Shown here: piece after piece, positions 1,159 to 36,544 of the stretch
How the letters are laid out: each line of letters opens with the position of its first letter
Numbering within the stretch: the stretch's first letter is position 1
Assembly (NCBI GenBank): GCA_964628835.1
Contig: CAZVME010000006.1
Location: 3,580-67,579, forward strand
Direction: 5' to 3'
Origin: an uncultured Gammaproteobacteria bacterium
GTDB lineage: Bacteria > Pseudomonadota > Gammaproteobacteria > Chromatiales > Chromatiaceae
DNA: 64,000 nt
The notes under the pieces: model-generated
Databases searched by the model: none
The model's input: only the letters and a program-made list of their open reading frames with translations
What the model was told of the DNA's origin: nothing
Program-made: the position numbers and the translations under genes

Positions 1159-4104
1159 ATGCAGGGTCATAATAGTAATCAAAAAATGCATTTTAGTCAG
1201 GATCTTGAGCAGAGGGTATTGGAACTGGGGCGGGAGATCCTCGCCCGGGCGGAAGAGATTCAAGCCCGGCAGGGTGGTGGTGAACGTTGGGTAAATAAAC
1301 TCCTGGAACAGAGCATGGCAGATGAAAGTTTCCGGGTGAAGGCCCTGCGGTTTATCGATGTGCTTCCGGCTTTGCGCAGTGATCAGGAACTGTTGCGTCA
1401 TCTGCATGAATATTTTTCTAAGGATGAGCTGCCATTACCTAAACCGTTGCGGGCACTGTTTGCCAGTTCCCACAACGCTATGACTGCCAAATTGATTGCG
1501 CCCGTAATTCGCCATGGAGCTGCAGCACTTGCGGAGCGTTTTCTGGGTGGCGCCACCCTCAAAGATGTAGAGGCGACTCTGGATCGGCAGACCGCCTTAG
1601 GATTGGCGGTTTCACTGGATCGTCTGGGTGAAGCGGTGGTGAGTGAGTCTGAGGCAAAGGAGTATCTGGCCAGCTACAACAAGATATTGGATAACCTGAC
1701 TGCCCATGCACATGGCGCTGATGGGAGTGAGTTAAACCTCTCGCTGAAGATCTCTTCTCTCTATCCGCGCATGCTGGCCTGTGACCCGGATGGGGCGGTT
1801 GACGGGGTGCTGGAGCGTCTGCGGCCTCTGCTGCTGCAGGCGAAAAAGAGTGGTGTGTCCATCTGTCTGGATATGGAGCAGTATGATCTTAAGGGAATCA
1901 TTCTAGATGCCTTTAAGAAAGTTATGCAGGAACCGGATTTTGTTACCTGGGCCGGTGGTGGTCTGGCGCTTCAGGGCTATTTACGTGAGGCAATTGATGA
2001 TCTTGATGGCTTGCTGGAGTGGGCCGATTCCAGGGAGCAGCCGGTAACAATTCGCCTGGTGCGTGGCGCTTACTGGGACCAGGAATTGATTCTCTCCAGA
2101 CGGGAAGGCTGGCCGCTTCCGGTCTGGCTGCATAAACATCAGACCGACAGGTCATTTGAACTCTGCCTTAACATGCTGTTTCAGGCCCATACCAAACTGC
2201 GTCCGGCGGTAGCCACCCATAACGTCAGGAGTATGGCCCTGGCCATGGCCCTGGCTGAGGAGAGTGGCACCGGGAAGGATGGGTTTGAGTTTCAGATGTT
2301 GTACGGGATGGGGGAAGCCCTACGTAGCGCCCTGGTGGAGATGGGTTACCGGGTGCGCCTCTACACGCCATTTGGGGAGCTACTCCCCGGCATGGCCTAC
2401 CTGGTGCGCCGGGTGTTGGAAAACTCATCCAGTCAGTCGTTTCTCCATCTTGGTTATCTGCCCCAGGAGATGTCGGAGCACATCCTGCATCCCAGCTACA
2501 GTTCCGAGATGGGGGCAGAGGAGATGCCGGCAGCGGTTGGTTTCAGCAATGAACCGGTGCGGCGCTTTACCGACCCGGCTGAGCGCGCAGGTTTTATCCG
2601 GGCCATAGAGAAGGTACGAGGAGATTTGGGCAGGAGTTATCCTCTGGATATTGGCGGCAGGCCGGTGGATACCGGGATCTATATTGACTCCATCAATCCG
2701 GCGCAACCCGAGCAACTGGTGGGACGGGTCTGTTCGGCCGCTAGTGATGAGGTAGAGCAGGTGGTGGAGGCGGCACGTATGGCCTATGCATCATGGGGTC
2801 ACAGCCGAGTGCATGAGCGGGTGAAACTGCTGCTTTGTGCAGCAGAAAAACTGCGACAGCGACGAGATGAGTTTGCGGCCTGGGAGATTTTTGAAGCGGG
2901 AAAGAGCTGGTCTGAAGCGGATGCGGATGTGGTGGAGGCCATAGATTTTCTTGAGTACTACGCCACAGAGGCCGAACGTTTGGGGGCTGGGTTCAGTAGT
3001 GACGTTATGGGTGAGACCAATCACTACTCCTATGCTCCAAGAGGTGTGGCCCTGATCCTGCCGCCATGGAATTTCCCCCTGGCCATTGTGACCGGCATGC
3101 TCTCCGCTGCACTGGTTACTGGCAACACGGCCATCCTGAAACCCTCATCCCAGACTCCGGTGGTGGCGGCAATGCTGGTACAGTTGCTCAAGGATGCAGG
3201 CGTTCCAGATGGGGTGGTGAATTATCTCCCCGGACCGGGCGAAGAGGTGGGTGAGTATCTGGTCAAACATCCCCACATAAGCATCATCGCCTTTACCGGC
3301 TCGGTTAAAGTGGGACTGCGTATCAATGAACTGGCAGCTCACACTCAGTCAAATCAGGCACAGGTGAAACGGGTGATAGCCGAGATGGGGGGCAAGAATG
3401 CCATTATCGTAGACGGCTCTGCCGACATGGATGAGGCGGTGCTGGGGACAGTGGCTTCCGCTTTTGGCTATCAAGGACAGAAGTGTAGCGCCTGCTCCAG
3501 GGTAATAGTTGTGGACACTGCCTACGCAGTTTTTAAACGACGCCTGATCGATGCCATAGCCAGTCTCAGGATCGGGCTGCCGGAGCTGCCCGGTACCGAT
3601 CTGGGTCCGGTTATAGAAGCGGCGGCCAAGCAGCGTATCGAGTCTGTTATTGCCCTGGAGTCTGAGATTAATAAACCGGTGCTTTCCCTGGATGTGTCTG
3701 AACATGCCCCAGGGTTTTTTGTTGGCTCAACCCTGTTTGCAGATGTAAGTCCAGAAAGTCCAGTTGCACAAGAGGAGATATTCGGGCCGGTATTGGCATT
3801 GCTAAAGGCGCAAGATTTTAAACAGGCCCTGGAGATTGCCAACGGCACCAGGTACGCCCTCACCGGTGGGGTCTACAGCCGTAGCCCCGCGAATCTGCAA
3901 CGTGCCACGCAGCAGTTCCAGGTGGGCAATCTTTACCTTAACCGAGGCATCACCGGTGCCCTGGTGGGCCGACAACCATTCGGTGGGTTCAAGATGAGTG
4001 GAGTAGGGAGCAAGGCCGGAGGCCCGGACTATCTGTTGCAGTTCATGGAACCGCGTACGGTTACCGAGAACACCATGCGTCGTGGCTATGCGCCCATGGA
4101 TTGA
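1159..4104 (+). CDS. putA: Bifunctional proline dehydrogenase / L-glutamate gamma-semialdehyde (P5C) dehydrogenase
   Basis: This is a 981-aa ORF. The N-terminal half is a PRODH barrel (RLVRGAYWD, MLYGMGE). The C-terminal half is an aldehyde dehydrogenase (EMGGKNA, GQKCSACSR, EEIFGPV). No antisense ORF is preferred over it. Confidence 0.9.
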   Translation: MQGHNSNQKMHFSQDLEQRVLELGREILARAEEIQARQGGGERWVNKLLEQSMADESFRVKALRFIDVLPALRSDQELLRHLHEYFSKDELPLPKPLRALFASSHNAMTAKLIAPVIRHGAAALAERFLGGATLKDVEATLDRQTALGLAVSLDRLGEAVVSESEAKEYLASYNKILDNLTAHAHGADGSELNLSLKISSLYPRMLACDPDGAVDGVLERLRPLLLQAKKSGVSICLDMEQYDLKGIILDAFKKVMQEPDFVTWAGGGLALQGYLREAIDDLDGLLEWADSREQPVTIRLVRGAYWDQELILSRREGWPLPVWLHKHQTDRSFELCLNMLFQAHTKLRPAVATHNVRSMALAMALAEESGTGKDGFEFQMLYGMGEALRSALVEMGYRVRLYTPFGELLPGMAYLVRRVLENSSSQSFLHLGYLPQEMSEHILHPSYSSEMGAEEMPAAVGFSNEPVRRFTDPAERAGFIRAIEKVRGDLGRSYPLDIGGRPVDTGIYIDSINPAQPEQLVGRVCSAASDEVEQVVEAARMAYASWGHSRVHERVKLLLCAAEKLRQRRDEFAAWEIFEAGKSWSEADADVVEAIDFLEYYATEAERLGAGFSSDVMGETNHYSYAPRGVALILPPWNFPLAIVTGMLSAALVTGNTAILKPSSQTPVVAAMLVQLLKDAGVPDGVVNYLPGPGEEVGEYLVKHPHISIIAFTGSVKVGLRINELAAHTQSNQAQVKRVIAEMGGKNAIIVDGSADMDEAVLGTVASAFGYQGQKCSACSRVIVVDTAYAVFKRRLIDAIASLRIGLPELPGTDLGPVIEAAAKQRIESVIALESEINKPVLSLDVSEHAPGFFVGSTLFADVSPESPVAQEEIFGPVLALLKAQDFKQALEIANGTRYALTGGVYSRSPANLQRATQQFQVGNLYLNRGITGALVGRQPFGGFKMSGVGSKAGGPDYLLQFMEPRTVTENTMRRGYAPMD

Positions 4105-7525: not shown

Positions 7526-8536
7526 ATGATGAGAATACGTACCGCGCTAATTCTAGCATTGACCGGAAGTTTAAGCATGGTTGCGATGGCTGTAGAGAGG
7601 CCCAAGCTGCCAGATCCCCCAAAAAACTATCCTCCTGGAGAGCTGGGACGTATGGTTAAGTTGGGTGAGGAAATTATTTACAATACCAATACCCACCCTT
7701 TGACTAAGGAACTGGTGGGTAATGATCTTAAATGCACCAACTGCCACCTGGATGGTGGTAAGACCAAGACCTTGGGAACCTTTATTGGAACCGCCACCTC
7801 GTTCCCTGCATACTCACCCCGGGAAAAAACAGTGCAGACATTGCAGAACCGTATCAATAACTGCTTTATGCGCAGTATGAACGGAAAGCGGCCGATTATT
7901 GATACTGAGGCCTCGGTGGCCATGGCCTCTTATGTCACCTGGCTCTCTTCCGGAATGCCGATCAAGATGAACCCCAAGAAGCCGGTTAATCCTAACTACA
8001 GCAAGATATGGTGGGGTAAGAAGTGGGTGCTGCCGATGATCAAAGTGGCAACTAATGACAACTACCTATCAGGTCAAAAGCTCTACACTGAGAAGTGTAT
8101 GGCCTGCCATCAGTCTGATGGTCAAGGGCTGGCTGAAGCCAAGTTCCCACCCATCTGGGGTGAACGCTCTTATAACACTGGAGCAGGCCTGAGTAAGCCA
8201 GAAAAACTGTCGACTTATCTGCTTTACAATATGCCTCTGGGCAAGGCAGACCTGACAAAACAGCAGGCGGTTGATATCGCTATTTACGTAGATGCTCAGC
8301 CTCGGCCTTCGTTTGACCTCAACCGGGCACTGTTTCCACGTGAGCAGATGGGCCACTACAACTCCAAGGTGCTGGAGGAGAAACATACGGTGAGCAGCAA
8401 TTTCTCCAAGTGGGGATTGGATGTGAACAAGATCCGTGCTGATACTTTTATCGCTGATTTGGAATCGGTGAAAAATGAGGAGATATCTTCTAGTTCCAGC
8501 AAAGGTAAGAAAGATAAGTTGAGCTTGGTTAAGTAG
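7526..8536 (+). CDS. tsdA: Dihaem cytochrome c thiosulfate dehydrogenase / tetrathionate reductase, TsdA family
   Basis: It has a signal peptide and two CxxCH motifs (CTNCH, CMACH). It also has the SoxA/TsdA-type QNRINNCFMRSMNG block carrying the Cys haem ligand. Confidence 0.75.
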   Translation: MMRIRTALILALTGSLSMVAMAVERPKLPDPPKNYPPGELGRMVKLGEEIIYNTNTHPLTKELVGNDLKCTNCHLDGGKTKTLGTFIGTATSFPAYSPREKTVQTLQNRINNCFMRSMNGKRPIIDTEASVAMASYVTWLSSGMPIKMNPKKPVNPNYSKIWWGKKWVLPMIKVATNDNYLSGQKLYTEKCMACHQSDGQGLAEAKFPPIWGERSYNTGAGLSKPEKLSTYLLYNMPLGKADLTKQQAVDIAIYVDAQPRPSFDLNRALFPREQMGHYNSKVLEEKHTVSSNFSKWGLDVNKIRADTFIADLESVKNEEISSSSSKGKKDKLSLVK

Positions 8537-8569
8537 TTTTATTTGGACTGACACAGGATCCCCTCCATT

Positions 8570-8606
8570 GGCCTGTCTACTGCAATAGTAGACAGGCCCT
8601 TTTTTT
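8570..8606 (+). terminator. Rho-independent terminator after tsdA
   Basis: ggcctgtctact-gcaa-tagtagacaggcc followed by a T-run. Confidence 0.7.
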
Positions 8607-9007
8607 CTTTGGTTTGCGGTGTGGTCGATGTCTAATCACATCAGTTTGATCACTTAGCAAACAACGGGACATAAGGGAAGGCAGTTACTTGGTAGGCCTG
8701 ATAAAGGATGGGTTTGGTTTAAGCTCTTTATGATCTGTTCTAACAGGAATTACTTTGCTGATCCAGATGTTGCTTTAACTGTATAGTCTACGGTTCTATC
8801 TGATGTAGTCTGCAAGATTGAGTCATAATTATTAACCAGGCACTAATATATACCACGTTTAGAGCTTCAAGAAAGACTCAGATCAAGCTGCAGCCCACAA
8901 CTGATTCTCTCTCCCTTGGTATGAGCTACAACACCGATCTGAGTCTTTCTGGAAGTTTCTAACAAACTAATTGTTTACCACTAGAGTTACAGTTGTACCC
9001 CTGGCAG

Positions 9008-28892: not shown

Positions 28893-29363
28893 GTGGCCTT
28901 GCACAAGATAGTTTCAGGAGGACAGACCGGGGTGGACCGCGCCGCCCTGGACGTTGCCCTGCAACTTGGCATGCCCTGTGGCGGCTGGTGTCCCAAGGGA
29001 AGATTGGCCGAAGATGGCGAAATTGCCGCCCACTATCCACTGCAAGAGACCCCTTCCAGCAACTATCGGGTGCGCACTGAATGGAATGTGCGGGACTCTG
29101 ATGCAACCTTGATTCTCAATCTGGGAGACCTTGAGGGTGGTACCGCCCTCACCGAGGTGCTGGCAAATGGCTATGCTAGTCCTTGCATGGTGCTGGACCT
29201 GGAGTCAGACCGGAATCTAGAGCAAATACTGGCCTGGCTGCAGGAGCACGATGTTTCAATCCTCAATATCGCAGGCCCACGTGGTTCCAAGCAGCCGCAT
29301 GCGTACAGGTTTGCCACCGAGCTGCTGCAACGCCTTATCCCCATTGCCAGGGATCAGGTCTGA
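28893..29363 (+). CDS. YpsA / 'putative molybdenum carrier' (SLOG-superfamily) protein
   Basis: IVSGGQTGVDRAALDVALQLGMPCGGWCPKGR. GTG start with AAGGA 8 nt upstream. Confidence 0.55.
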   Translation: MALHKIVSGGQTGVDRAALDVALQLGMPCGGWCPKGRLAEDGEIAAHYPLQETPSSNYRVRTEWNVRDSDATLILNLGDLEGGTALTEVLANGYASPCMVLDLESDRNLEQILAWLQEHDVSILNIAGPRGSKQPHAYRFATELLQRLIPIARDQV

Positions 29364-30138: not shown

Positions 30139-30846
30139 TTATTTTGCTAATACACGAAGTGAATAGCCGCCCAATACCCGTACTGTTAAATCTTTATTTG
30201 CCAAAAAGGCAAGCTTCCTGGGTAATTTTAATAGTTTAGCCTTCCATCTTAGGTTTGGTAATTCCAGAGAGGTTCCTGTGTAAAAATAATCAAGAACCTC
30301 ATATCCAGTATCTTTTAGAGTTTCCAGTGCTGTTTCCTTTGTAAAATAGTGGATATGTCCGGCTATTTTCTTGCTCTGATAATTGGAGAAGAACGAAGAA
30401 TAGTTTGAATTGATAAATCAAGTGGGATATGGAATACCTTGTATTCTGCCTTTTTTTTCAACTTTGTTAGAAAGCCAAAATAGTCTTCAGCGTGCTCAAA
30501 AAACATCAATTGCCATTACAATATCAAAATGTTCATCAGAGTCCTCAAGTAGATTGGAAAGTTTAAAGGATAGATTGTCCTTGGTCTTCGTGCTGCATAG
30601 TTTAAATGCTTGAGGTGAGATTTCGTATCCGACAAATTCCACATCGTCAGTATAGTGCTCTGACAGCTGCTTGAGTATTTCTCCAGCCCCACATCCAATC
30701 TCACAAATTCTATTTGGAATCAGAGAGTTATTTTCGATTATGTTTTTTATTTGCCTGGCCTTCCACGGCGAGTCAGCTTCATGCCATGAAGGATTATTTA
30801 CAAGATATGTTCCGTCTTCGTAGATTTGTTTCATCTGGTATTCCAT
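30139..30846 (-). pseudogene. Class I SAM-dependent methyltransferase disrupted by two compensating frameshifts
   Basis: The annotated ORF ends at AIDVF* in a T6 run. The homologous reading continues in the +1 frame (EHAEDYFGFLTKLKKKAEYKVFHIPLDLS...). It then returns to the original frame (KIAGHIHYFTKETALETLKDTGYEVLDYFYTG...VLAK*). SAM motif EIGCGAGE is present. Confidence 0.6.
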
Positions 30847-30980
30847 ATTATTTTACGCATAACGATTGTAGCAGGCGCGTTATGGAATCTAGCTGTAGGT
30901 GAAATAAAATAAACATCGATCTGGCTGTTTTTGTTAAGGCCTTTGTTTGAGGTTAGCGAAGGTCACGCTTAAATGACCTG

Positions 30981-31376
30981 TTAGGCATCTGGCTTTAAAG
31001 CGTCTAATTTATTGCTACGATATAACCACCAAAACCCAGCAAACAAAGCGAACCATACTCCGGTTCGTAAAGACATAGCGCGAAGGCTTTCAACAGCAAT
31101 AGAGTTACCCTCTGTGTATAGAAAGAAGATTGCTGTCAGCATGGTGAGGTTGAGAACAAATATAGTAGCTGCGACATACATGCCTTGTTTGATGTTGCGC
31201 CATGCGATGATACCTGCTGCGACATAAACAATACCCATTGCTGCGTTATAGATTAGTAGCGGTCGGAAAACGATATACCCCGGATTTGACCCTAGAAGGA
31301 CACGAGTGCCTGCAAAAATGGTTAAAAGACCAAATAATACAGCTACAGTTACCAATATGTTTTGGGTGATTCTCAT
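30981..31376 (-). CDS. Small four-TM membrane protein, unknown function (cassette ORF)
   Basis: Four hydrophobic spans. The stop TAA lies inside GCCTAAC. Confidence 0.5.
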   Translation of the reverse strand: MRITQNILVTVAVLFGLLTIFAGTRVLLGSNPGYIVFRPLLIYNAAMGIVYVAAGIIAWRNIKQGMYVAATIFVLNLTMLTAIFFLYTEGNSIAVESLRAMSLRTGVWFALFAGFWWLYRSNKLDALKPDA

Positions 31377-31414: not shown

Positions 31415-31481
31415 GCTTAACGACTAAGCTTACAGGGATAGGCGCGTTAGCGCTAAAGTCCTGGATGAGCGTAATGTTATG
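31415..31481 (-). repeat. attC-like recombination site (67 bp)
   Basis: Minus strand reads GCATAAC-ATTAC-GCTCATCCAGGA...TCCCTGTAAGC-TTAGTC-GTTAAGC. This gives 5-nt and 6-nt spacers and one extra base in the left inner arm, as in canonical attC. Confidence 0.55.
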
Positions 31482-31491
31482 CATTACTTTA

Positions 31492-32175
31492 TTATGGTGT
31501 ATCACCATATATCTCCAGCATATCAGGTCGTTCAGTAAAATAATAATGAACCCAAATATAAACATGGTTGAATAGTGCCGCTAAAATTGCCGCTTTCGAT
31601 AGAAGTAATAATCCAGGCAAATAAAGGATCATTAGGCCAAATACGTACATCCCGTTATCAGTATATTTAAATATCCCTTTTTTTACATAGGGCTCATTGT
31701 AGTGTTTATCGAAATGATCAATTCCATATGCTCTTTTAATAGTGAAGTAATTTTTTACCGAGTAAAAAAGGAATATTACTAGAGGTGTTATTAGTACTGC
31801 TAAAGCATAACTGAGCATCGGATTTATATTTAGAGTGCCTTTACTACTATACGCCAGAATGATTATTGTAATCAGCCGGCTTATAAATAGTAATGAAAAC
31901 CCTGTGGCATATATTTTAAACGACAGATTTAGGCCATAGCGTTTTGTGAATGTTCTTTGGTAAAGCTCAAGCCGCCAGACACCCCAAACATAAACTTGAT
32001 GAATAATGGGAATTGCAATTGCCAACCAGAACCATGTTTTTGTAGTTAAACCCCATAAATTTCCGCTTAATATCTCAGTGTCATTGTTTAGATATAAGTT
32101 GATGGCAAAGATTATGATTATTAATGAGATGAAGTGCCATATTTGGTATTTAAATATTTTTCTAGTTTCGCTCAT
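31492..32175 (-). CDS. Polytopic membrane protein with an ICMT/PEMT-like methyltransferase C-terminus (cassette ORF)
   Basis: The C-terminal KGIFKYTDNGMYVFGLMILY... resembles the G.Y...RHP.Y.G block of isoprenylcysteine/phospholipid methyltransferases, with RHP replaced. Confidence 0.4.
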   Translation of the reverse strand: MSETRKIFKYQIWHFISLIIIIFAINLYLNNDTEILSGNLWGLTTKTWFWLAIAIPIIHQVYVWGVWRLELYQRTFTKRYGLNLSFKIYATGFSLLFISRLITIIILAYSSKGTLNINPMLSYALAVLITPLVIFLFYSVKNYFTIKRAYGIDHFDKHYNEPYVKKGIFKYTDNGMYVFGLMILYLPGLLLLSKAAILAALFNHVYIWVHYYFTERPDMLEIYGDTP

Positions 32176-32205: not shown

Positions 32206-32243
32206 CGGAATTATGTAGCAGTTGCAACTGCTACATAATTCCG
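32206..32243. repeat. 38-bp perfect palindrome flanked by 8-bp direct repeats
   Basis: cggaattatgtagcagttg/caactgctacataattccg was verified base by base. GAAATAGT occurs at 32198-32205 and at 32244-32251. Confidence 0.85.
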
Positions 32244-32342: not shown

Positions 32343-33068
32343 TTATTCTTTCGTTATCTTTGCATCTTCTAGCAGAACAGGATAAAAATAGCCGTAGCTA
32401 TAATCCTTATCCAGTGTAAGTTTGCCTTCAACGACAACTATGTCATCAATAGCCACTGTGCTATCCGTGGTGACGGTCAGATCATCCGCAGTACTACTGT
32501 CTTTTATATGTAGCCAGTTTTTTCCCATTACTTTGGCGGTGTATCGAGTGACCTTGCCTCGTAGACGTATTGTTTTTCCGCTGAGCTTTTGTTTTTGAGC
32601 ATGGATCTCAGCGATAGTATGGCCCTGTTTTACTTTATGAATGCCTGTAACAGGTTTGGCTGCTTGTTTCTGTTTGATCTGGCTGTGCGCTGAAGCCATT
32701 CCTCCAGCATTGCTCGCCGAAGATTTTTTACCAGTGATATAACCGCCTACAAAATAGATAATGGGAAAATCACGCTTCATGGATTTACTATGGAAATTTT
32801 CCATGGGTGTCTCTGTTGAAAAGCCGATCATATCGCCGATTTTAAGAGGGGTGTTTGGCCCGGCGGCCCACACTTTCTTTTTGCCCGTATCAATCTCGGC
32901 ATAAGTGTAACCGGAGTTCTTTAAAATCTCCGTTACCTTGCCGTGAATTGTGTTTGGGGTGGTGTTCTGTTCCGCATAGGCAGAATTGATTGTGCCTGCA
33001 CTGAAAAGAACGAAAGAAAAACAGCTAAACAGTATTAATAAAAAATTAGTACGATGTCTCATAATCAT
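32343..33068 (-). CDS. Exported protein of unknown function (cassette ORF)
   Basis: Signal peptide, then two similar beta-rich modules (GKVTEILKNSGYTYAEID... and GKVTRYTAKVMGKNWLHIKD...). Confidence 0.5.
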   Translation of the reverse strand: MIMRHRTNFLLILFSCFSFVLFSAGTINSAYAEQNTTPNTIHGKVTEILKNSGYTYAEIDTGKKKVWAAGPNTPLKIGDMIGFSTETPMENFHSKSMKRDFPIIYFVGGYITGKKSSASNAGGMASAHSQIKQKQAAKPVTGIHKVKQGHTIAEIHAQKQKLSGKTIRLRGKVTRYTAKVMGKNWLHIKDSSTADDLTVTTDSTVAIDDIVVVEGKLTLDKDYSYGYFYPVLLEDAKITKE

Positions 33069-33861
33069 ATTGCTCTCAGTTTAATTATTTGCTCATAACG
33101 TCTCGTATAACCGGCTAGCACCTGAAAACCCGCTTGACACTAGAAAGGCAACGACTAATAGCAGAGCAAAAAAAAACGCCGTTGTTAGCAATTCCGCGTT
33201 CATGCGTTTGTTAGGCAACTTACGGTACCACAGTTTTTCAGAAGAAATGTTGCTTGACCGATCATGCGCTACCTGGCATTCATTGTGAATGACATTTCTC
33301 ACTATGAACTCTTCGCGCGCGCGCACTTAAGATGGAACTACAGATACTTCGGCAACAATACCACTGAATTCTTCGCCTTGCGGTATCACATAGAATCCCA
33401 AAAACCAGTAACACAAGCCGCGAACAGGCTCAGAAATTATTTCCGGGCCACTACCAAAGTCGATCGCTGCGTCAGGGGACATGATTTGATAATCGTGAAT
33501 CCAGCCTCACCGATCTGCTTTATCAGTGAACCCAGCACACGGAATTTTACTATTTGGATCGAACAGCAGAAGGTTCAGAACGAACAACGCTCCGAATAAC
33601 TGGGGGATTACCAGAGTTGGAGAATTTGTCATCCCGGCGATGGTCCAGGCCCACGGCCCCACAGGTGTTCAGCAGGGCCTCCAGATGGTCGGGTACTGTG
33701 CCGCGGTGGCCGGAACCTCCTCGATCTATTTCTCCGAATCCCCCAAAATGGCGAACAATCCAAACTGGACGGCGGTGGGCACCACCTGTACCTGCAACGG
33801 TGCCATTAATATATCGGAAATGCTCAAAGTCATGACTATGTAGCTACTCCTTTTCATGTTT

Positions 33862-33954
33862 GTATAACGTTTTGCCTAGGGGCGCGGAGCCGTGCAGCGG
33901 TGGGGCATTCCAGTGAGTGAATGCGAACGATTTGAGCTACTTATTATGTTAGTA
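33862..33954 (-). repeat. attC-like site, partly degenerate
   Basis: Minus strand reads TACTAAC...AAGTAGCTC...CTAGGCAAAAC-GTTATAC. It shares the AAGTAGCTC, TCGCATT and CTAGGCA blocks with the site at 35428-35498. Confidence 0.4.
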
Positions 33955-34195
33955 CTATTAATTTTGTTAAATATGGCAAAGTACACAAAACTGCGCCTAT
34001 TTGTAAGGCTCTGCCCAGCTTGGATAGCTCTGGGTAATGTTCTTTTATTTCTTTATTAAATGGCCAGAATTGTATTGATGGCGGACGTTTATTTGTTTGT
34101 GCTTCATATGTGTGAAGAACAAATATACTTAGAAACAGCAAAATCGTTCCAAGTACGAAAGCTATATTTACACTTAAATTAATTAGAAATTCCAT
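33944..34195 (-). CDS. Small two-TM membrane protein (cassette ORF)
   Basis: 83 aa with two hydrophobic spans. Its stop lies next to TACTAAC. Confidence 0.4.
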   Translation of the reverse strand: MEFLINLSVNIAFVLGTILLFLSIFVLHTYEAQTNKRPPSIQFWPFNKEIKEHYPELSKLGRALQIGAVLCTLPYLTKLIVLT

Positions 34196-34213
34196 TTATC
34201 TATTTGTATAAAG

Positions 34214-34420
34214 CTATGTTAAAGGGTGTTGACGCGACAGCATCCAAGTGAGCGTAGCGAACGGCTTGAACAACTTGTTGGGTGCAGGTTTCGATGCCAA
34301 TATCACGCTATTGAACAACTGCTGATGATTGGTATTTATTTGAATGAAGCTCGCACGGAGGAACGCTAGAGCATATTCACGAAATGCTTTTAATTCTATT
34401 AAATCGGCTTTAACTTCCAT
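34214..34420 (-). CDS. Small hypothetical protein whose 3' end reads through an attC-like sequence
   Basis: The start is taken at MEVKADL, with AAGGA 7 nt upstream. The C-terminal APNKLFKP is encoded by ACCCAACAAGTTGTTCAAGCCG. Confidence 0.3.
   Translation of the reverse strand: MEVKADLIELKAFREYALAFLRASFIQINTNHQQLFNSVILASKPAPNKLFKPFATLTWMLSRQHPLT
34215..34283 (-). repeat. Partial attC-like site; the left half is canonical and the right half is not
   Basis: Minus strand reads ACCCAAC-AAGTT-GTTCAAGCC-GTTCGCTACGC.... No GTTRRRY partner was found. Confidence 0.35.
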
Positions 34421-34530
34421 GATGTTCCTTGCCTTATTATTTTTATTTGCAACGCGAACCACGAAAGAACGTTGCACTTTCGTTCAGGTATTTTAGACAG
34501 CTCTGCTGAACAACGACCTGGCTACGCTTG

Positions 34531-35421
34531 TTAAGTGTTGATACCCCATAGTTCAAGCCTTGACTCTATATATTTACGCAACAATGAATATTTGAAAGCT
34601 ACCTTCGAATTCTTATTTTCCTGGAACTGTTTCGAAGATTCAAGAACGAATGCATATGCTCGGCGAACTAACTCTTGACCATCATCAAAAGCCTCCATTT
34701 CGCGTCGCATTGCCGGCCCGATAAAATCAATAAACGGGTAGCCATCATCGTCAATAGCTAAAAATTCCATACTGTGCTTCGCCAGTTCCTTTGAGACTTG
34801 TGAGACTTCATCTGTTTCAGTACATTCTGCCAAGTACTGTAGGTACGACTGTAGCTCCCCACCTACTACCACTCGTGGGTAATTTGCTACGTGTGACTCG
34901 AGCGCATATGCACGAGCTAGCGCCGCACCATAAATGTCATTGTGCTTGACCTCAATACCGATTCCAATATCGATACCACCACGAATGGGATGGCCAGAAG
35001 CGAGGGAGGTTAACGACGTAGCTGCCGTGGCTCCAATAATCGCGTAAATACCACTAATAGGTAGCTTGGCACCTCGATCCGCTCGTAAGGACAAAAAAGC
35101 AACCACGAAGTCCGAGAATTGATGAAATCGTATCGGGTTAGATACTAACTCTTTAAAAATCTGTTTCTTCTCGTTCGGCAGGCCTTTTGGCGGTGTGCGC
35201 TTCTTTTCAAAATTGCCAAAGAATTTGTTGAAAGAAGAACGCATCGACTTCACGGCACCGTAAGTATTCTTTAGTGCCTGAACGAACTTCTCATGTTCTT
35301 CGGTGTTTTTAGAATCAGGTAGACTTTTGAGAGCTCGCAGCTGCTCCTGTTGCCCCATTAAATCGATGAAGGCTACTGCGTAGTAACTCGAATCAATGCG
35401 TTTATGTTTCTTCCGTGCCAT
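34531..35421 (-). CDS. Hypothetical protein with a nucleotidyl-cyclase-like (class III cyclase / palm) motif set
   Basis: AVAFIDLMG, FSDFVVAFL, IRGGIDIGIG and DIYGAALARAYALES occur in the order expected for cyclase homology domains. The stop TAA lies inside ACTTAAC. Confidence 0.5.
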   Translation of the reverse strand: MARKKHKRIDSSYYAVAFIDLMGQQEQLRALKSLPDSKNTEEHEKFVQALKNTYGAVKSMRSSFNKFFGNFEKKRTPPKGLPNEKKQIFKELVSNPIRFHQFSDFVVAFLSLRADRGAKLPISGIYAIIGATAATSLTSLASGHPIRGGIDIGIGIEVKHNDIYGAALARAYALESHVANYPRVVVGGELQSYLQYLAECTETDEVSQVSKELAKHSMEFLAIDDDGYPFIDFIGPAMRREMEAFDDGQELVRRAYAFVLESSKQFQENKNSKVAFKYSLLRKYIESRLELWGINT

Positions 35422-35427
35422 TTGTAC

Positions 35428-35498
35428 ACTTAATGCCTAGCTCACCGGAAAAATGCGAGCGCAGCGAGTATTTTGTCCGGCGGAGCTACTTGTTAGGG
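35428..35498 (-). repeat. attC-like recombination site (71 bp); the best example in the array
   Basis: Minus strand reads CCCTAAC-AAGTA-GCTCCGCCGG...CCGGTGAGC-TAGGCA-TTAAGT. It has 5-nt/6-nt spacers and an extra base in the left inner arm. Confidence 0.6.
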
Positions 35499-36019
35499 CC
35501 ATCATCGCTATTCCATGAAGCCTTTGTGAACTTCCCAGTACCTTTGGTTAGATTTTTTCTTTCAATCATTTTAGATTTAAATTGAAATTCTTCGCTTATT
35601 CTGACGATCAGTAACTTATTAAAATTGCCAGCTCGCTTAACTTGAACGGTATCACTAGACTTCATGGGGCTAATGGTCTTGATTTCGAAAAAATCATTGC
35701 CCATTCGCCCGTCTGAACCAGGGGTGTTGGGCTTGTGTCTCTTTATTCCATATTTAATTTCGCCATAAAGTTCACCTAGTTCGCCGTATATTGGCAGATG
35801 GCGTCCTGTCGTTTCTAAGTAGTTTTTTGCTGCCTCGATCATCTTAGCCAATAACTCCCAGAGTTGGAGTGTCGATGGCGGTAGTGATTCTCCGAGAATT
35901 TCATCATCAGGTTCCCAACTATCGTCGTCATCAATGTAATTCTCAATGAGATCCCAACTAGTCCATTCGCCATCTTCGTAAATTCCGTTTACCCAGTTGA
36001 TCCGTTCTTCTTCAAACAT
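35486..36019 (-). CDS. Hypothetical protein with a PD-(D/E)xK-like motif and a very acidic N-terminus
   Basis: GELGE...GSDGRMGNDFFEIKT (D...ExK). The C-terminal GPNK* is encoded by CCCTAACAAGTAG. The start is taken at MFEEER, because the upstream extension of the ORF is covered by a hairpin. Confidence 0.45.
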   Translation of the reverse strand: MFEEERINWVNGIYEDGEWTSWDLIENYIDDDDSWEPDDEILGESLPPSTLQLWELLAKMIEAAKNYLETTGRHLPIYGELGELYGEIKYGIKRHKPNTPGSDGRMGNDFFEIKTISPMKSSDTVQVKRAGNFNKLLIVRISEEFQFKSKMIERKNLTKGTGKFTKASWNSDDGPNK

Positions 36020-36544
36020 CGTTGAATCCAATTTTTGCCATAACAGTGATATAGACAGACTCTCTGCATATCGAAATAGGCAGAGTCTATATAACACGAT
36101 TCGTAATTGTCTGGTTTCGTGTGATTTATTGGTGTGGTTTGGCAATGCCTTGCCTGGTTTGAGCGGGGGATAAAGCAGTGGGGTATTTTTGGTGCTGGTT
36201 GGTCGTTGAGTAACATAACCGTTTTTACATCCTTGATATTTTTATTTTATCCCAGCCTCATGCAACTACGCATTGCAATTTATATTCAGAGCTTACCTTA
36301 GTATTTGAGAGGTAGTCAAATATCCGGTTTTGTGATGAAAATCTGAATATATCTAATTACAAAAAGGGGAATAGGTCCGGTTCAATGTGCCATTAATATG
36401 GCGGGGTAGATAAACATGCGTGGGTTGAACGGATGCTGATAATGCTCTGTCTTGCGCGAGGAGCCAATCTTGGTTAGAGCGCAGCTGTTTCTATGATTAA
36501 GAGTTGGTTTTCGCGGGCGCGATTTTATGGTTTTAATATGAGGG

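Follow-up and report, generated by a model that had tools for sequence, protein, structure and literature searches.

A cyclase-like toxin has been described in the Burkholderia prophage phi52237, in which gp8 (YP_293707.1) lies 3 nt downstream of gp9, coding for a DUF4065 protein; the two genes are located between the integrase gene and a second toxin-antitoxin (TA) pair adjoining the portal gene. The gp8/gp9 pair has been validated as a PanA/PanT type II TA system, in which gp8 is PanT(Bur. phage), a 'putative nucleotide cyclase' (Kurata et al., PNAS 2022, PMC8832971). PanT has no CDD match, and HHpred relates it to adenylate/guanylate cyclases with 97% probability (PMC8832971). It is toxic in E. 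coli, is neutralised by and forms a complex with the Panacea antitoxin PanA, inhibits transcription most, then translation, then replication, and leads to RelA-dependent induction of guanosine tetraphosphate (ppGpp) with ATP unchanged (PMC8832971). Here, we describe a distant and apparently partner-less relative of PanT, encoded in a 64-kb stretch of DNA (contig CAZVME010000006.1, positions 3,580 to 67,579; 64,000 nt, hereafter the window) from an uncultured marine gammaproteobacterium. The window sequence was found in one sequencing run only, a seawater DNA metagenome.

The gene in question is an open reading frame (ORF) at 34531-35421 on the minus strand (ATG start, stop codon included), coding for a PanT-like protein of 296 aa with a cyclase-homology fold; all parts of it described below are on the same strand. 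The window protein matches PanT by BLASTP (E 1e-11, 31% identity over a 120-aa core), and the profile of its family does so by hmmsearch (E 5.9e-15) and by hhalign (probability 97.8%, E 8e-13, 229 columns), the hhalign alignment extending to residue 281. The preliminary description of this locus, made from the sequence alone, had proposed an enzyme of an undescribed type, which is too strong given that this distant homolog is already a validated cyclase-like TA toxin. PanT itself belongs to a short form of the family, present in P2-like Burkholderia phages. DUF4065 is not found among the ORFs flanking the window gene, and PanA homologs, sought by tblastn with gp9, are limited to a Burkholderia prophage lineage (loci L045, L046, and L055); a 166-aa ORF upstream of the short forms in L051-53 is unrelated to PanA by BLASTP. 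A literature search turned up no later work on the PanT toxin or on stand-alone relatives.

Checking the ORF and its translation placed the four sequence blocks that had suggested a cyclase at the positions first reported. The beta1 motif AVAFIDLMG (residues 15-23; 35353-35379) carries D20 (35362-35364), the counterpart of the first metal-binding Asp, in register with the DIxGF motif of the class III cyclase homology domain (CHD) by way of the short forms; the beta2-beta3 hairpin motif FSDFVVAFL (residues 102-110; 35092-35118) carries D104 (35110-35112), the counterpart of the second, aligned with the CHD 'GD'. In the beta4 motif IRGGIDIGIG (residues 146-155; 34957-34986), R147 aligns with the Arg of the cyclase RIGIHTG strand, and the beta5/alpha4 motif DIYGAALARAYALES (residues 162-176; 34894-34938) includes the invariant G165 and E175, with A169 and A173 where cyclases have Asn and Arg. 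An invariant P182-R183 pair (34873-34878) opens strand beta6 (YPRVVV). These blocks are not chance resemblances: across 280 single-domain homologs, which are the source of all conservation counts given here, D104, R147, G165, E175, P182, and R183 are each identical in 280/280, D20 is Asp in all 273 sequences aligned at that column, and D224, D226, Q24, Y164, and Y278 are close to invariant.

An AlphaFold2 model built from 56 relatives (predicted local distance difference test score [pLDDT] 91.5; predicted template modelling score [pTM] 0.88) has D20 at the end of strand beta1 (residues 11-21), S103-D104 in the hairpin linking strands 98-101 and 105-111, and R147 at the beginning of a long strand (146-158), with G165 to E175 forming the next helix; as modelled, the topology of the window protein is that of the CHD fold. 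When the model was compared with the PDB using Foldseek, 50/50 of the top matches were catalytic domains of class III adenylyl/guanylyl cyclases (probability 0.96-1.00), the best being M. tuberculosis Rv1900c (PDB 1ybt and 1ybu; TMt 0.60-0.67, root-mean-square deviation 3.0-3.9 Å). The non-cyclase placement that would have undone the preliminary description was thus not seen, and identity with a GGDEF, Cas10, or mCpol palm was rejected, since the top 50 structural matches are all class III CHDs. A structure search of BFVD gave weak matches to giant-virus cyclases or response regulators and nothing stronger.

Two helical elements are added to the core. One is an expanded alpha1 insertion spanning approximately residues 24-97 (35131-35352), modelled as helices 24-29, 40-73, and 83-91 and largely absent from the short prophage forms; this expansion explains the 84 residues that separate D20 from D104, a distance that had been remarked on as unusually long. 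The other is a C-terminal extension past the cyclase core at approximately residues 236-296 (34534-34716; helices 236-242, 248-268, 272-286, and 289-292), which is common to PanT. The preliminary description had noted a helical C-terminal region of about 100 aa; its last part, from about residue 236, is indeed extra and helical, and the remainder belongs to the cyclase core (beta6, helices, and a beta7-beta8 hairpin). We note that the family profile over approximately residues 22-133 (35023-35358) marginally matches the FAT-homology domain, itself helical, of human PDCD10/CCM3 (E 0.005), which we set aside as probably a matter of helical composition in the insertion.

At the level of sequence, the connection to authentic cyclases runs through short relatives encoded on viral contigs. 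These are 230-313 aa long, with VAFIDILGF at beta1 and an Asp-Asp spacing of 46-61, and are without most of the helical insertion. The long-form family aligns to the short forms with an hhalign probability of 99.75% (E 3e-27), and the short forms align to authentic CHD sequences, which were recovered from PDB alignments and then aligned, over 125 columns (P 3.4e-4, probability 38%) with both Asp, the beta4 Arg, the G...ES helix, and beta6 in register. This transitive alignment and the structural matches agree on a class III cyclase-like fold, and it places both Asp residues in register with the cyclase metal ligands at the alignment level, as had been proposed. The best match to PF00211 in the superfamily comes from one short form and is in register and sub-threshold (E 0.0036; 17.4 bits vs a cutoff of 21.9); neither the window protein nor the 56 relatives match PF00211 at E<=1. 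A GxxVNxAaR-like helix had also been reported, and of this the G...E helix is in register and the Asn and Arg are replaced (A169 and A173). Position 169 is Ala or Ser in 204/280 homologs, position 173 is variable, and the Asn/Arg transition-state pair is absent family-wide, so that one defining cyclase feature is missing and canonical cyclisation is not assured.

Three members of the family (P0106, P0109, and P0129; 603-642 aa) are tandem duplications, and in each the full signature is kept in the C-terminal half only. In the N-terminal halves, S103-D104 is changed to AG, AN, or GN, E175 to Ala, and D20 to Glu in two of the three, and D226 is lost; R147, Y164, G165, and P182-R183 are retained. 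Such one-sided decay is seen in pseudo-heterodimeric class III cyclases and mirrors the C1/C2 asymmetry of mammalian cyclases; it speaks for a catalytic role of the conserved residues and for a dimer as the functional unit, and from these sequences we infer that the window protein would likewise catalyse as a dimer. An AlphaFold2 model of a tandem member, made from a three-sequence alignment, was too poor to use (pLDDT 52.7).

The family is both very large and unannotated. In a word-indexed search, 86 clusters of homologs with about 300 aa came up, all labelled 'hypothetical' and without Pfam domains; searching exhaustively with a profile yielded 8,916 representative clusters (50% identity) at E<=1e-3, with 1,277 at E<=1e-30. 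Searches of Pfam, NCBIfam, PADLOC, and PDB sequences with the window protein and with 56 or 138 relatives returned nothing relevant, so the profile comparison with Pfam and PDB sequences that had been suggested gave no placement for either the protein or its relatives; that these resources miss the family accounts for its 'hypothetical' label everywhere. Two PHROG families match, both without annotated function. As first described, the window protein has neither a sensor nor an effector domain, and it has no conserved partner. Fusions of the family domain are rare and involve an HNH-like N-terminus, a transmembrane (TM) segment, or DUF5677: P0157 begins with about 270 aa in which we read an HNH-like motif (CCFCGG...ELDHVPS) and which match nothing in Pfam, P0132 carries a TM helix and about 200 aa at its N-terminus, and P0204 has a C-terminal DUF5677. 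A DUF5677 ORF has been picked for anti-phage testing, the domain being enriched near serine recombinases (2025 preprint, PMC12632615).

The gene originated as an integron cassette. Its stop codon TAA lies within an R'' box, ACTTAAC (34536->34530; 34530-34536, minus strand), and an attC-like bulged hairpin belonging to the upstream cassette is found upstream of the gene (35428-35498, minus strand), with R'' CCCTAAC, bulged stems TAGCTC/CCGGA, and a degenerate R' ATTAAGT (ATT for GTT); both had been pointed out in the preliminary description. The window gene's cassette begins at TTAAGT (35433->35428), and ACTTAAC is complementary to GTTAAGT, in accord with the cassette boundary rule. The decisive comparison is with L042, which codes for a homolog with 81% identity flanked by attC sites that fold properly. 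DNA homology between the two loci spans window positions 35436 to 34527, beginning at TTAAGT, right after the G of the canonical R' GTTAAGT of L042, and ending after the 10-nt R'' segment ACTTAACAAG, which is identical in L042; the homology is therefore bounded by the cassette boundaries. An rve-family insertion sequence transposase is encoded on the opposite strand two cassettes downstream of this closest homolog (L042:2237-3208).

The window array itself is degraded. At the downstream attC only the R'' is found, with a 129-nt candidate that forms no single hairpin (z = -0.85), and no integron integrase is encoded in the 64-kb window. The best-folding attC-like site elsewhere in the surrounding low-GC island is 68 nt long (31415-31482, strand not given; z = -2.86, with 0/200 shuffles folding as well). 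Taken together, the degenerate upstream R', the R''-only downstream site, the one other folding site, and the lack of IntI point to a decayed, integrase-less array remnant. Four AAC...GTT box pairs (30855-30988, 33103-33218, 33860-33974, and 34205-34295) showed no attC folding and were dropped; a pattern-based attC detector was too strict, missing a site in a true integron.

The low-GC island extends over approximately 30.0-36.5 kb (38-46% GC; its flanks have about 50-60%). It is bordered on one side by a cpYpsA SLOG-family gene (28893-29363) and on the other by csiV/mfd, and includes a truncated S-adenosylmethionine (SAM)-methyltransferase ORF (30496-30846), a PEMT-family methyltransferase gene (31492-32175), small ORFs, and few recognisable attC sites. 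The upstream cassette (35486-36145, minus strand) codes for a 219-aa protein with only a weak DUF6998 match (E 0.079), and the last codons of this ORF hold the R'' box CCCTAAC of the attC-like site. A perfect palindrome of 19+19 nt without a spacer (CGGAATTATGTAGCAGTTG / CAACTGCTACATAATTCCG; 32206-32243) lies between the PEMT-like gene and the gene for a 241-aa protein (32343-33068) with a hydrophobic N-terminus that we read as resembling a signal peptide. Promoter, terminator, tRNA, and Rfam scans of the window gave nothing specific.

To place the relatives in their genomes, we used a scan for family loci seeded with a nine-sequence alignment; patterns from a single protein picked up no loci, and the full alignment diverged too much to be used as a seed. 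Clustering of 401 neighbouring ORFs from 40 loci showed no recurrent partner, and for the window protein neither an antitoxin nor a conserved neighbour emerged over 45 loci. In the clade of the window gene, 42-424 nt separate the gene from the next ORF upstream and 52-125 nt from the next one downstream. The relative P0064 lies inside a complete integron with an IntI scoring 471.6 bits on TIGR02249 and two family paralogs in its array, and another relative is in the L002 array alongside ParE/RHH. P0006 (60% identical; L043:1314-6795) directly follows a DEAD helicase gene and an ApeA (HEPN_Apea) defence gene, with Bro-N, HTH_3 repressor, and Sipho_Gp157 genes in its flanks, in what looks like a prophage defence hotspot, and a further relative resides in a restriction-modification (RM)/HerA island, adjoining a serine recombinase. 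The conflict and defence flavour that had been suspected is thus borne out by these contexts, and integron cassettes are well known to harbour compact defence genes, which fits a defence role and does not prove it. The array with two paralogs deserves fuller mention: in a 4.16-Mb metagenomic contig, L001:1418-16106 is a complete integron in which IntI is followed by co-oriented cassettes, including two family paralogs (2876-3766 and 7998-8915), a SAM methyltransferase, a 1256-aa protein with a faint nSTAND3 match, and a 1270-aa protein that weakly resembles the anti-phage Upx (E 3.7e-8, far under its cutoff).

We tentatively favour, at a little short of an even chance for the explanation as a whole, that the window gene codes for a stand-alone, long-form, cyclase-fold toxin-like enzyme, mobilised as a cassette and serving in an abortive-infection-type or selfish role. 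The protein is a long-form member of a very large superfamily with the class III nucleotidyl-cyclase (palm) fold, of which PanT is the sole characterised member. We predict that a head-to-tail dimer binds a nucleoside triphosphate (NTP) with two divalent metals on D20 and D104, and that R147, and possibly R183, contacts the NTP phosphates; the reaction may not be canonical 3',5'-cyclisation, because the Asn/Arg pair is missing. By analogy with PanT, the host cell would be arrested, first in transcription and then in translation, through a nucleotide product or modification and not through ATP depletion, and the outcome could be either abortive-infection-type protection or selfish stabilisation. 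Because no antitoxin is present, control would have to be intrinsic or dependent on a trigger. The gene moved as a single-gene integron cassette and now sits in a decayed remnant. The data presented above establish the fold, the residue conservation, the homology to PanT, the lack of a partner, and the cassette origin, whereas dimeric catalysis, toxicity, a role in defence, and the mode of control are predicted.

Several observations weigh against this explanation. The tie to true cyclases consists of structure and one modest profile-profile alignment (38%); when the long-form family was compared directly with six authentic CHDs by hhalign, no significant match resulted (probability 0.4%), and the lone local alignment lay in the alpha4 helix, with A169 and A173 opposite the catalytic Asn and Arg. 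Lacking the Asn/Arg pair, the protein might catalyse poorly or not be a cyclase at all, and PanT is about 31% identical over the core only, so that function may have diverged. Toxicity, activity, and a phage phenotype of the long forms are predictions by analogy, and stable carriage is not easily explained for a toxin that lacks an antitoxin. The attC sites of the window are degraded, the gene may be silent there, as no promoter stands out, and the neighbours of other relatives include many housekeeping genes, as in L003.

Other explanations are less well supported. The protein might have no role in conflict and be a regulatory enzyme of a benign kind or a pseudo-cyclase that binds nucleotides without catalysis, much like the class III cyclase-like ATP-binding protein of P. 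aeruginosa (PDB 6yii); this would account for the missing canonical Asn/Arg pair, for the presence of 6yii among the Foldseek matches, and for members among housekeeping genes such as that in L003. We consider this improbable, since both metal Asp residues are invariant in the 280 sequences and lost selectively in one tandem half only, which argues for catalysis, the patchy distribution is tied to integrons, prophages, and defence islands, and toxicity is established for the homolog PanT. Alternatively, the cyclase fold and metal ligands might be those of a Pycsar- or CBASS-like signalling cyclase that acts in trans, making a cyclic nucleotide on infection that is read by an effector whose gene lies in another cassette or elsewhere in the genome; signalling systems are known in integron cassettes and defence islands, and the L001 array has two paralogs. 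The preliminary description had leaned towards such a Pycsar-type system, but there is no match to PycC (PADLOC, E<=1) or any other PADLOC model, and no effector with a cyclic nucleoside monophosphate (cNMP)-binding domain together with a TM or TIR domain was found among the window neighbours or as a recurrent neighbour in the 40 loci. A mobile single-gene cassette, moreover, cannot depend on an unlinked receptor, and the characterised homolog PanT is toxic by itself, so that a signalling cyclase is decidedly improbable; of the earlier term 'signalling/defence enzyme', the defence part is in keeping with the genomic contexts, whereas the homology to PanT points to a toxin-like effector and not to a signalling enzyme.

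If the protein is a toxin, it could in principle be one half of a TA pair that stabilises the array, with its antitoxin an unrecognised small neighbour such as the 87-aa ORF at 34214-34477 or an ORF of the upstream cassette. PanT-type toxins do partner many different antitoxins, TA cassettes are common in chromosomal integrons (as with ParE/RHH in L002), and some distant members have tightly coupled, diverse neighbours. However, the homology with L042 goes no further than the cassette boundaries, which makes the neighbours of the two genes unrelated, the intergenic gaps in the clade run from 42 to 424 nt upstream and from 52 to 125 nt downstream, and the 87-aa ORF begins inside a presumed attC remnant and belongs to no family, which makes a pair very improbable. 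Most improbable of all is that the gene is a counter-defence or host-takeover enzyme derived from a phage or mobile element, perturbing host nucleotide signalling and not defending the host: the two PHROG families that match and the short relatives in prophages and P2-like phages would suit it, but the long-form branch has 0 matches in 50,697 phage records, the prophage copies occupy lysogeny-side accessory regions beside TA modules, which are typical sites of superinfection-exclusion cargo, and PanT is toxic to its own expressing cell. None of these displaces the stand-alone toxin-like enzyme as our preferred explanation.

A bolder version of that explanation, which we put forward as speculation and think rather unlikely, is that the long-form family is a self-contained, single-polypeptide anti-phage system. 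The helical insertion and the C-terminal helices would hold the toxin off until a phage cue is received, so that no antitoxin is needed, a non-canonical nucleotide product (not a standard cNMP, because the Asn/Arg pair is missing) would stop transcription, and the genes would have spread among environmental bacteria via integron cassettes. More generally, the cyclase fold and the link to PanT provide a testable hypothesis for thousands of orphan genes, and the window gene adds a candidate to the compact defence-type cassette genes outside Vibrio and clinical integrons. They also raise the questions of what reaction is performed by a cyclase-fold enzyme with metal ligands but no Asn/Arg pair, a question that extends to the product of PanT, and of how a toxin homolog is tolerated without an antitoxin.

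Among known systems, authentic class III cyclases (PF00211, such as Rv1900c) share with the window family the fold, the strand order, both metal Asp residues, and the beta4 Arg, together with the Gly that begins alpha4, the Glu-Ser that closes it, and beta6 in register; the tandem family fusions also decay asymmetrically, as in cyclases with an active site at the dimer interface. Unlike the CHDs, the family has Ala/Ser and a variable residue in place of Asn/Arg and does not match PF00211, and the window protein has an alpha1 longer by about 40 residues, extra C-terminal helices, and no regulatory domain. Pycsar likewise presents a class III-type cyclase fold in a phage-conflict setting at mobile or defence loci, but as a two-gene system, with PycC and a cNMP-activated TM or TIR effector, in contrast to the single gene here, whose homolog PanT is itself the toxic component.

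PanT is the nearest of these, having the same signature (beta1 Asp, SD, RGG, G...E, and PR) and C-terminal helical region, with both proteins carried on mobile elements and lacking a Pfam or CDD match. The two differ in that PanT has a beta1 of canonical appearance (VAFIDILGF), a shorter alpha1 with an Asp-Asp spacing of 58 vs 84, and a 40-aa N-terminal extension, whereas the window protein has GQQ for GF and a longer helical insertion; furthermore, PanT is paired with Panacea (DUF4065), whereas the window protein is borne on a cassette without PanA or any conserved partner. Fused toxin-antitoxin defence proteins of the CapRel(SJ46) type (PMC9712102) offer a functional analogy only, as their fold and chemistry are unrelated, and the extra segment of the window protein is a helical insertion longer by 26-38 residues with a putative role in autoinhibition. 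The parallel is that CapRel toxSAS toxins occur both as PanA-neutralised pairs and as self-controlled single polypeptides, just as the cyclase-fold family comprises a short form paired with PanA and a long form that has no partner.

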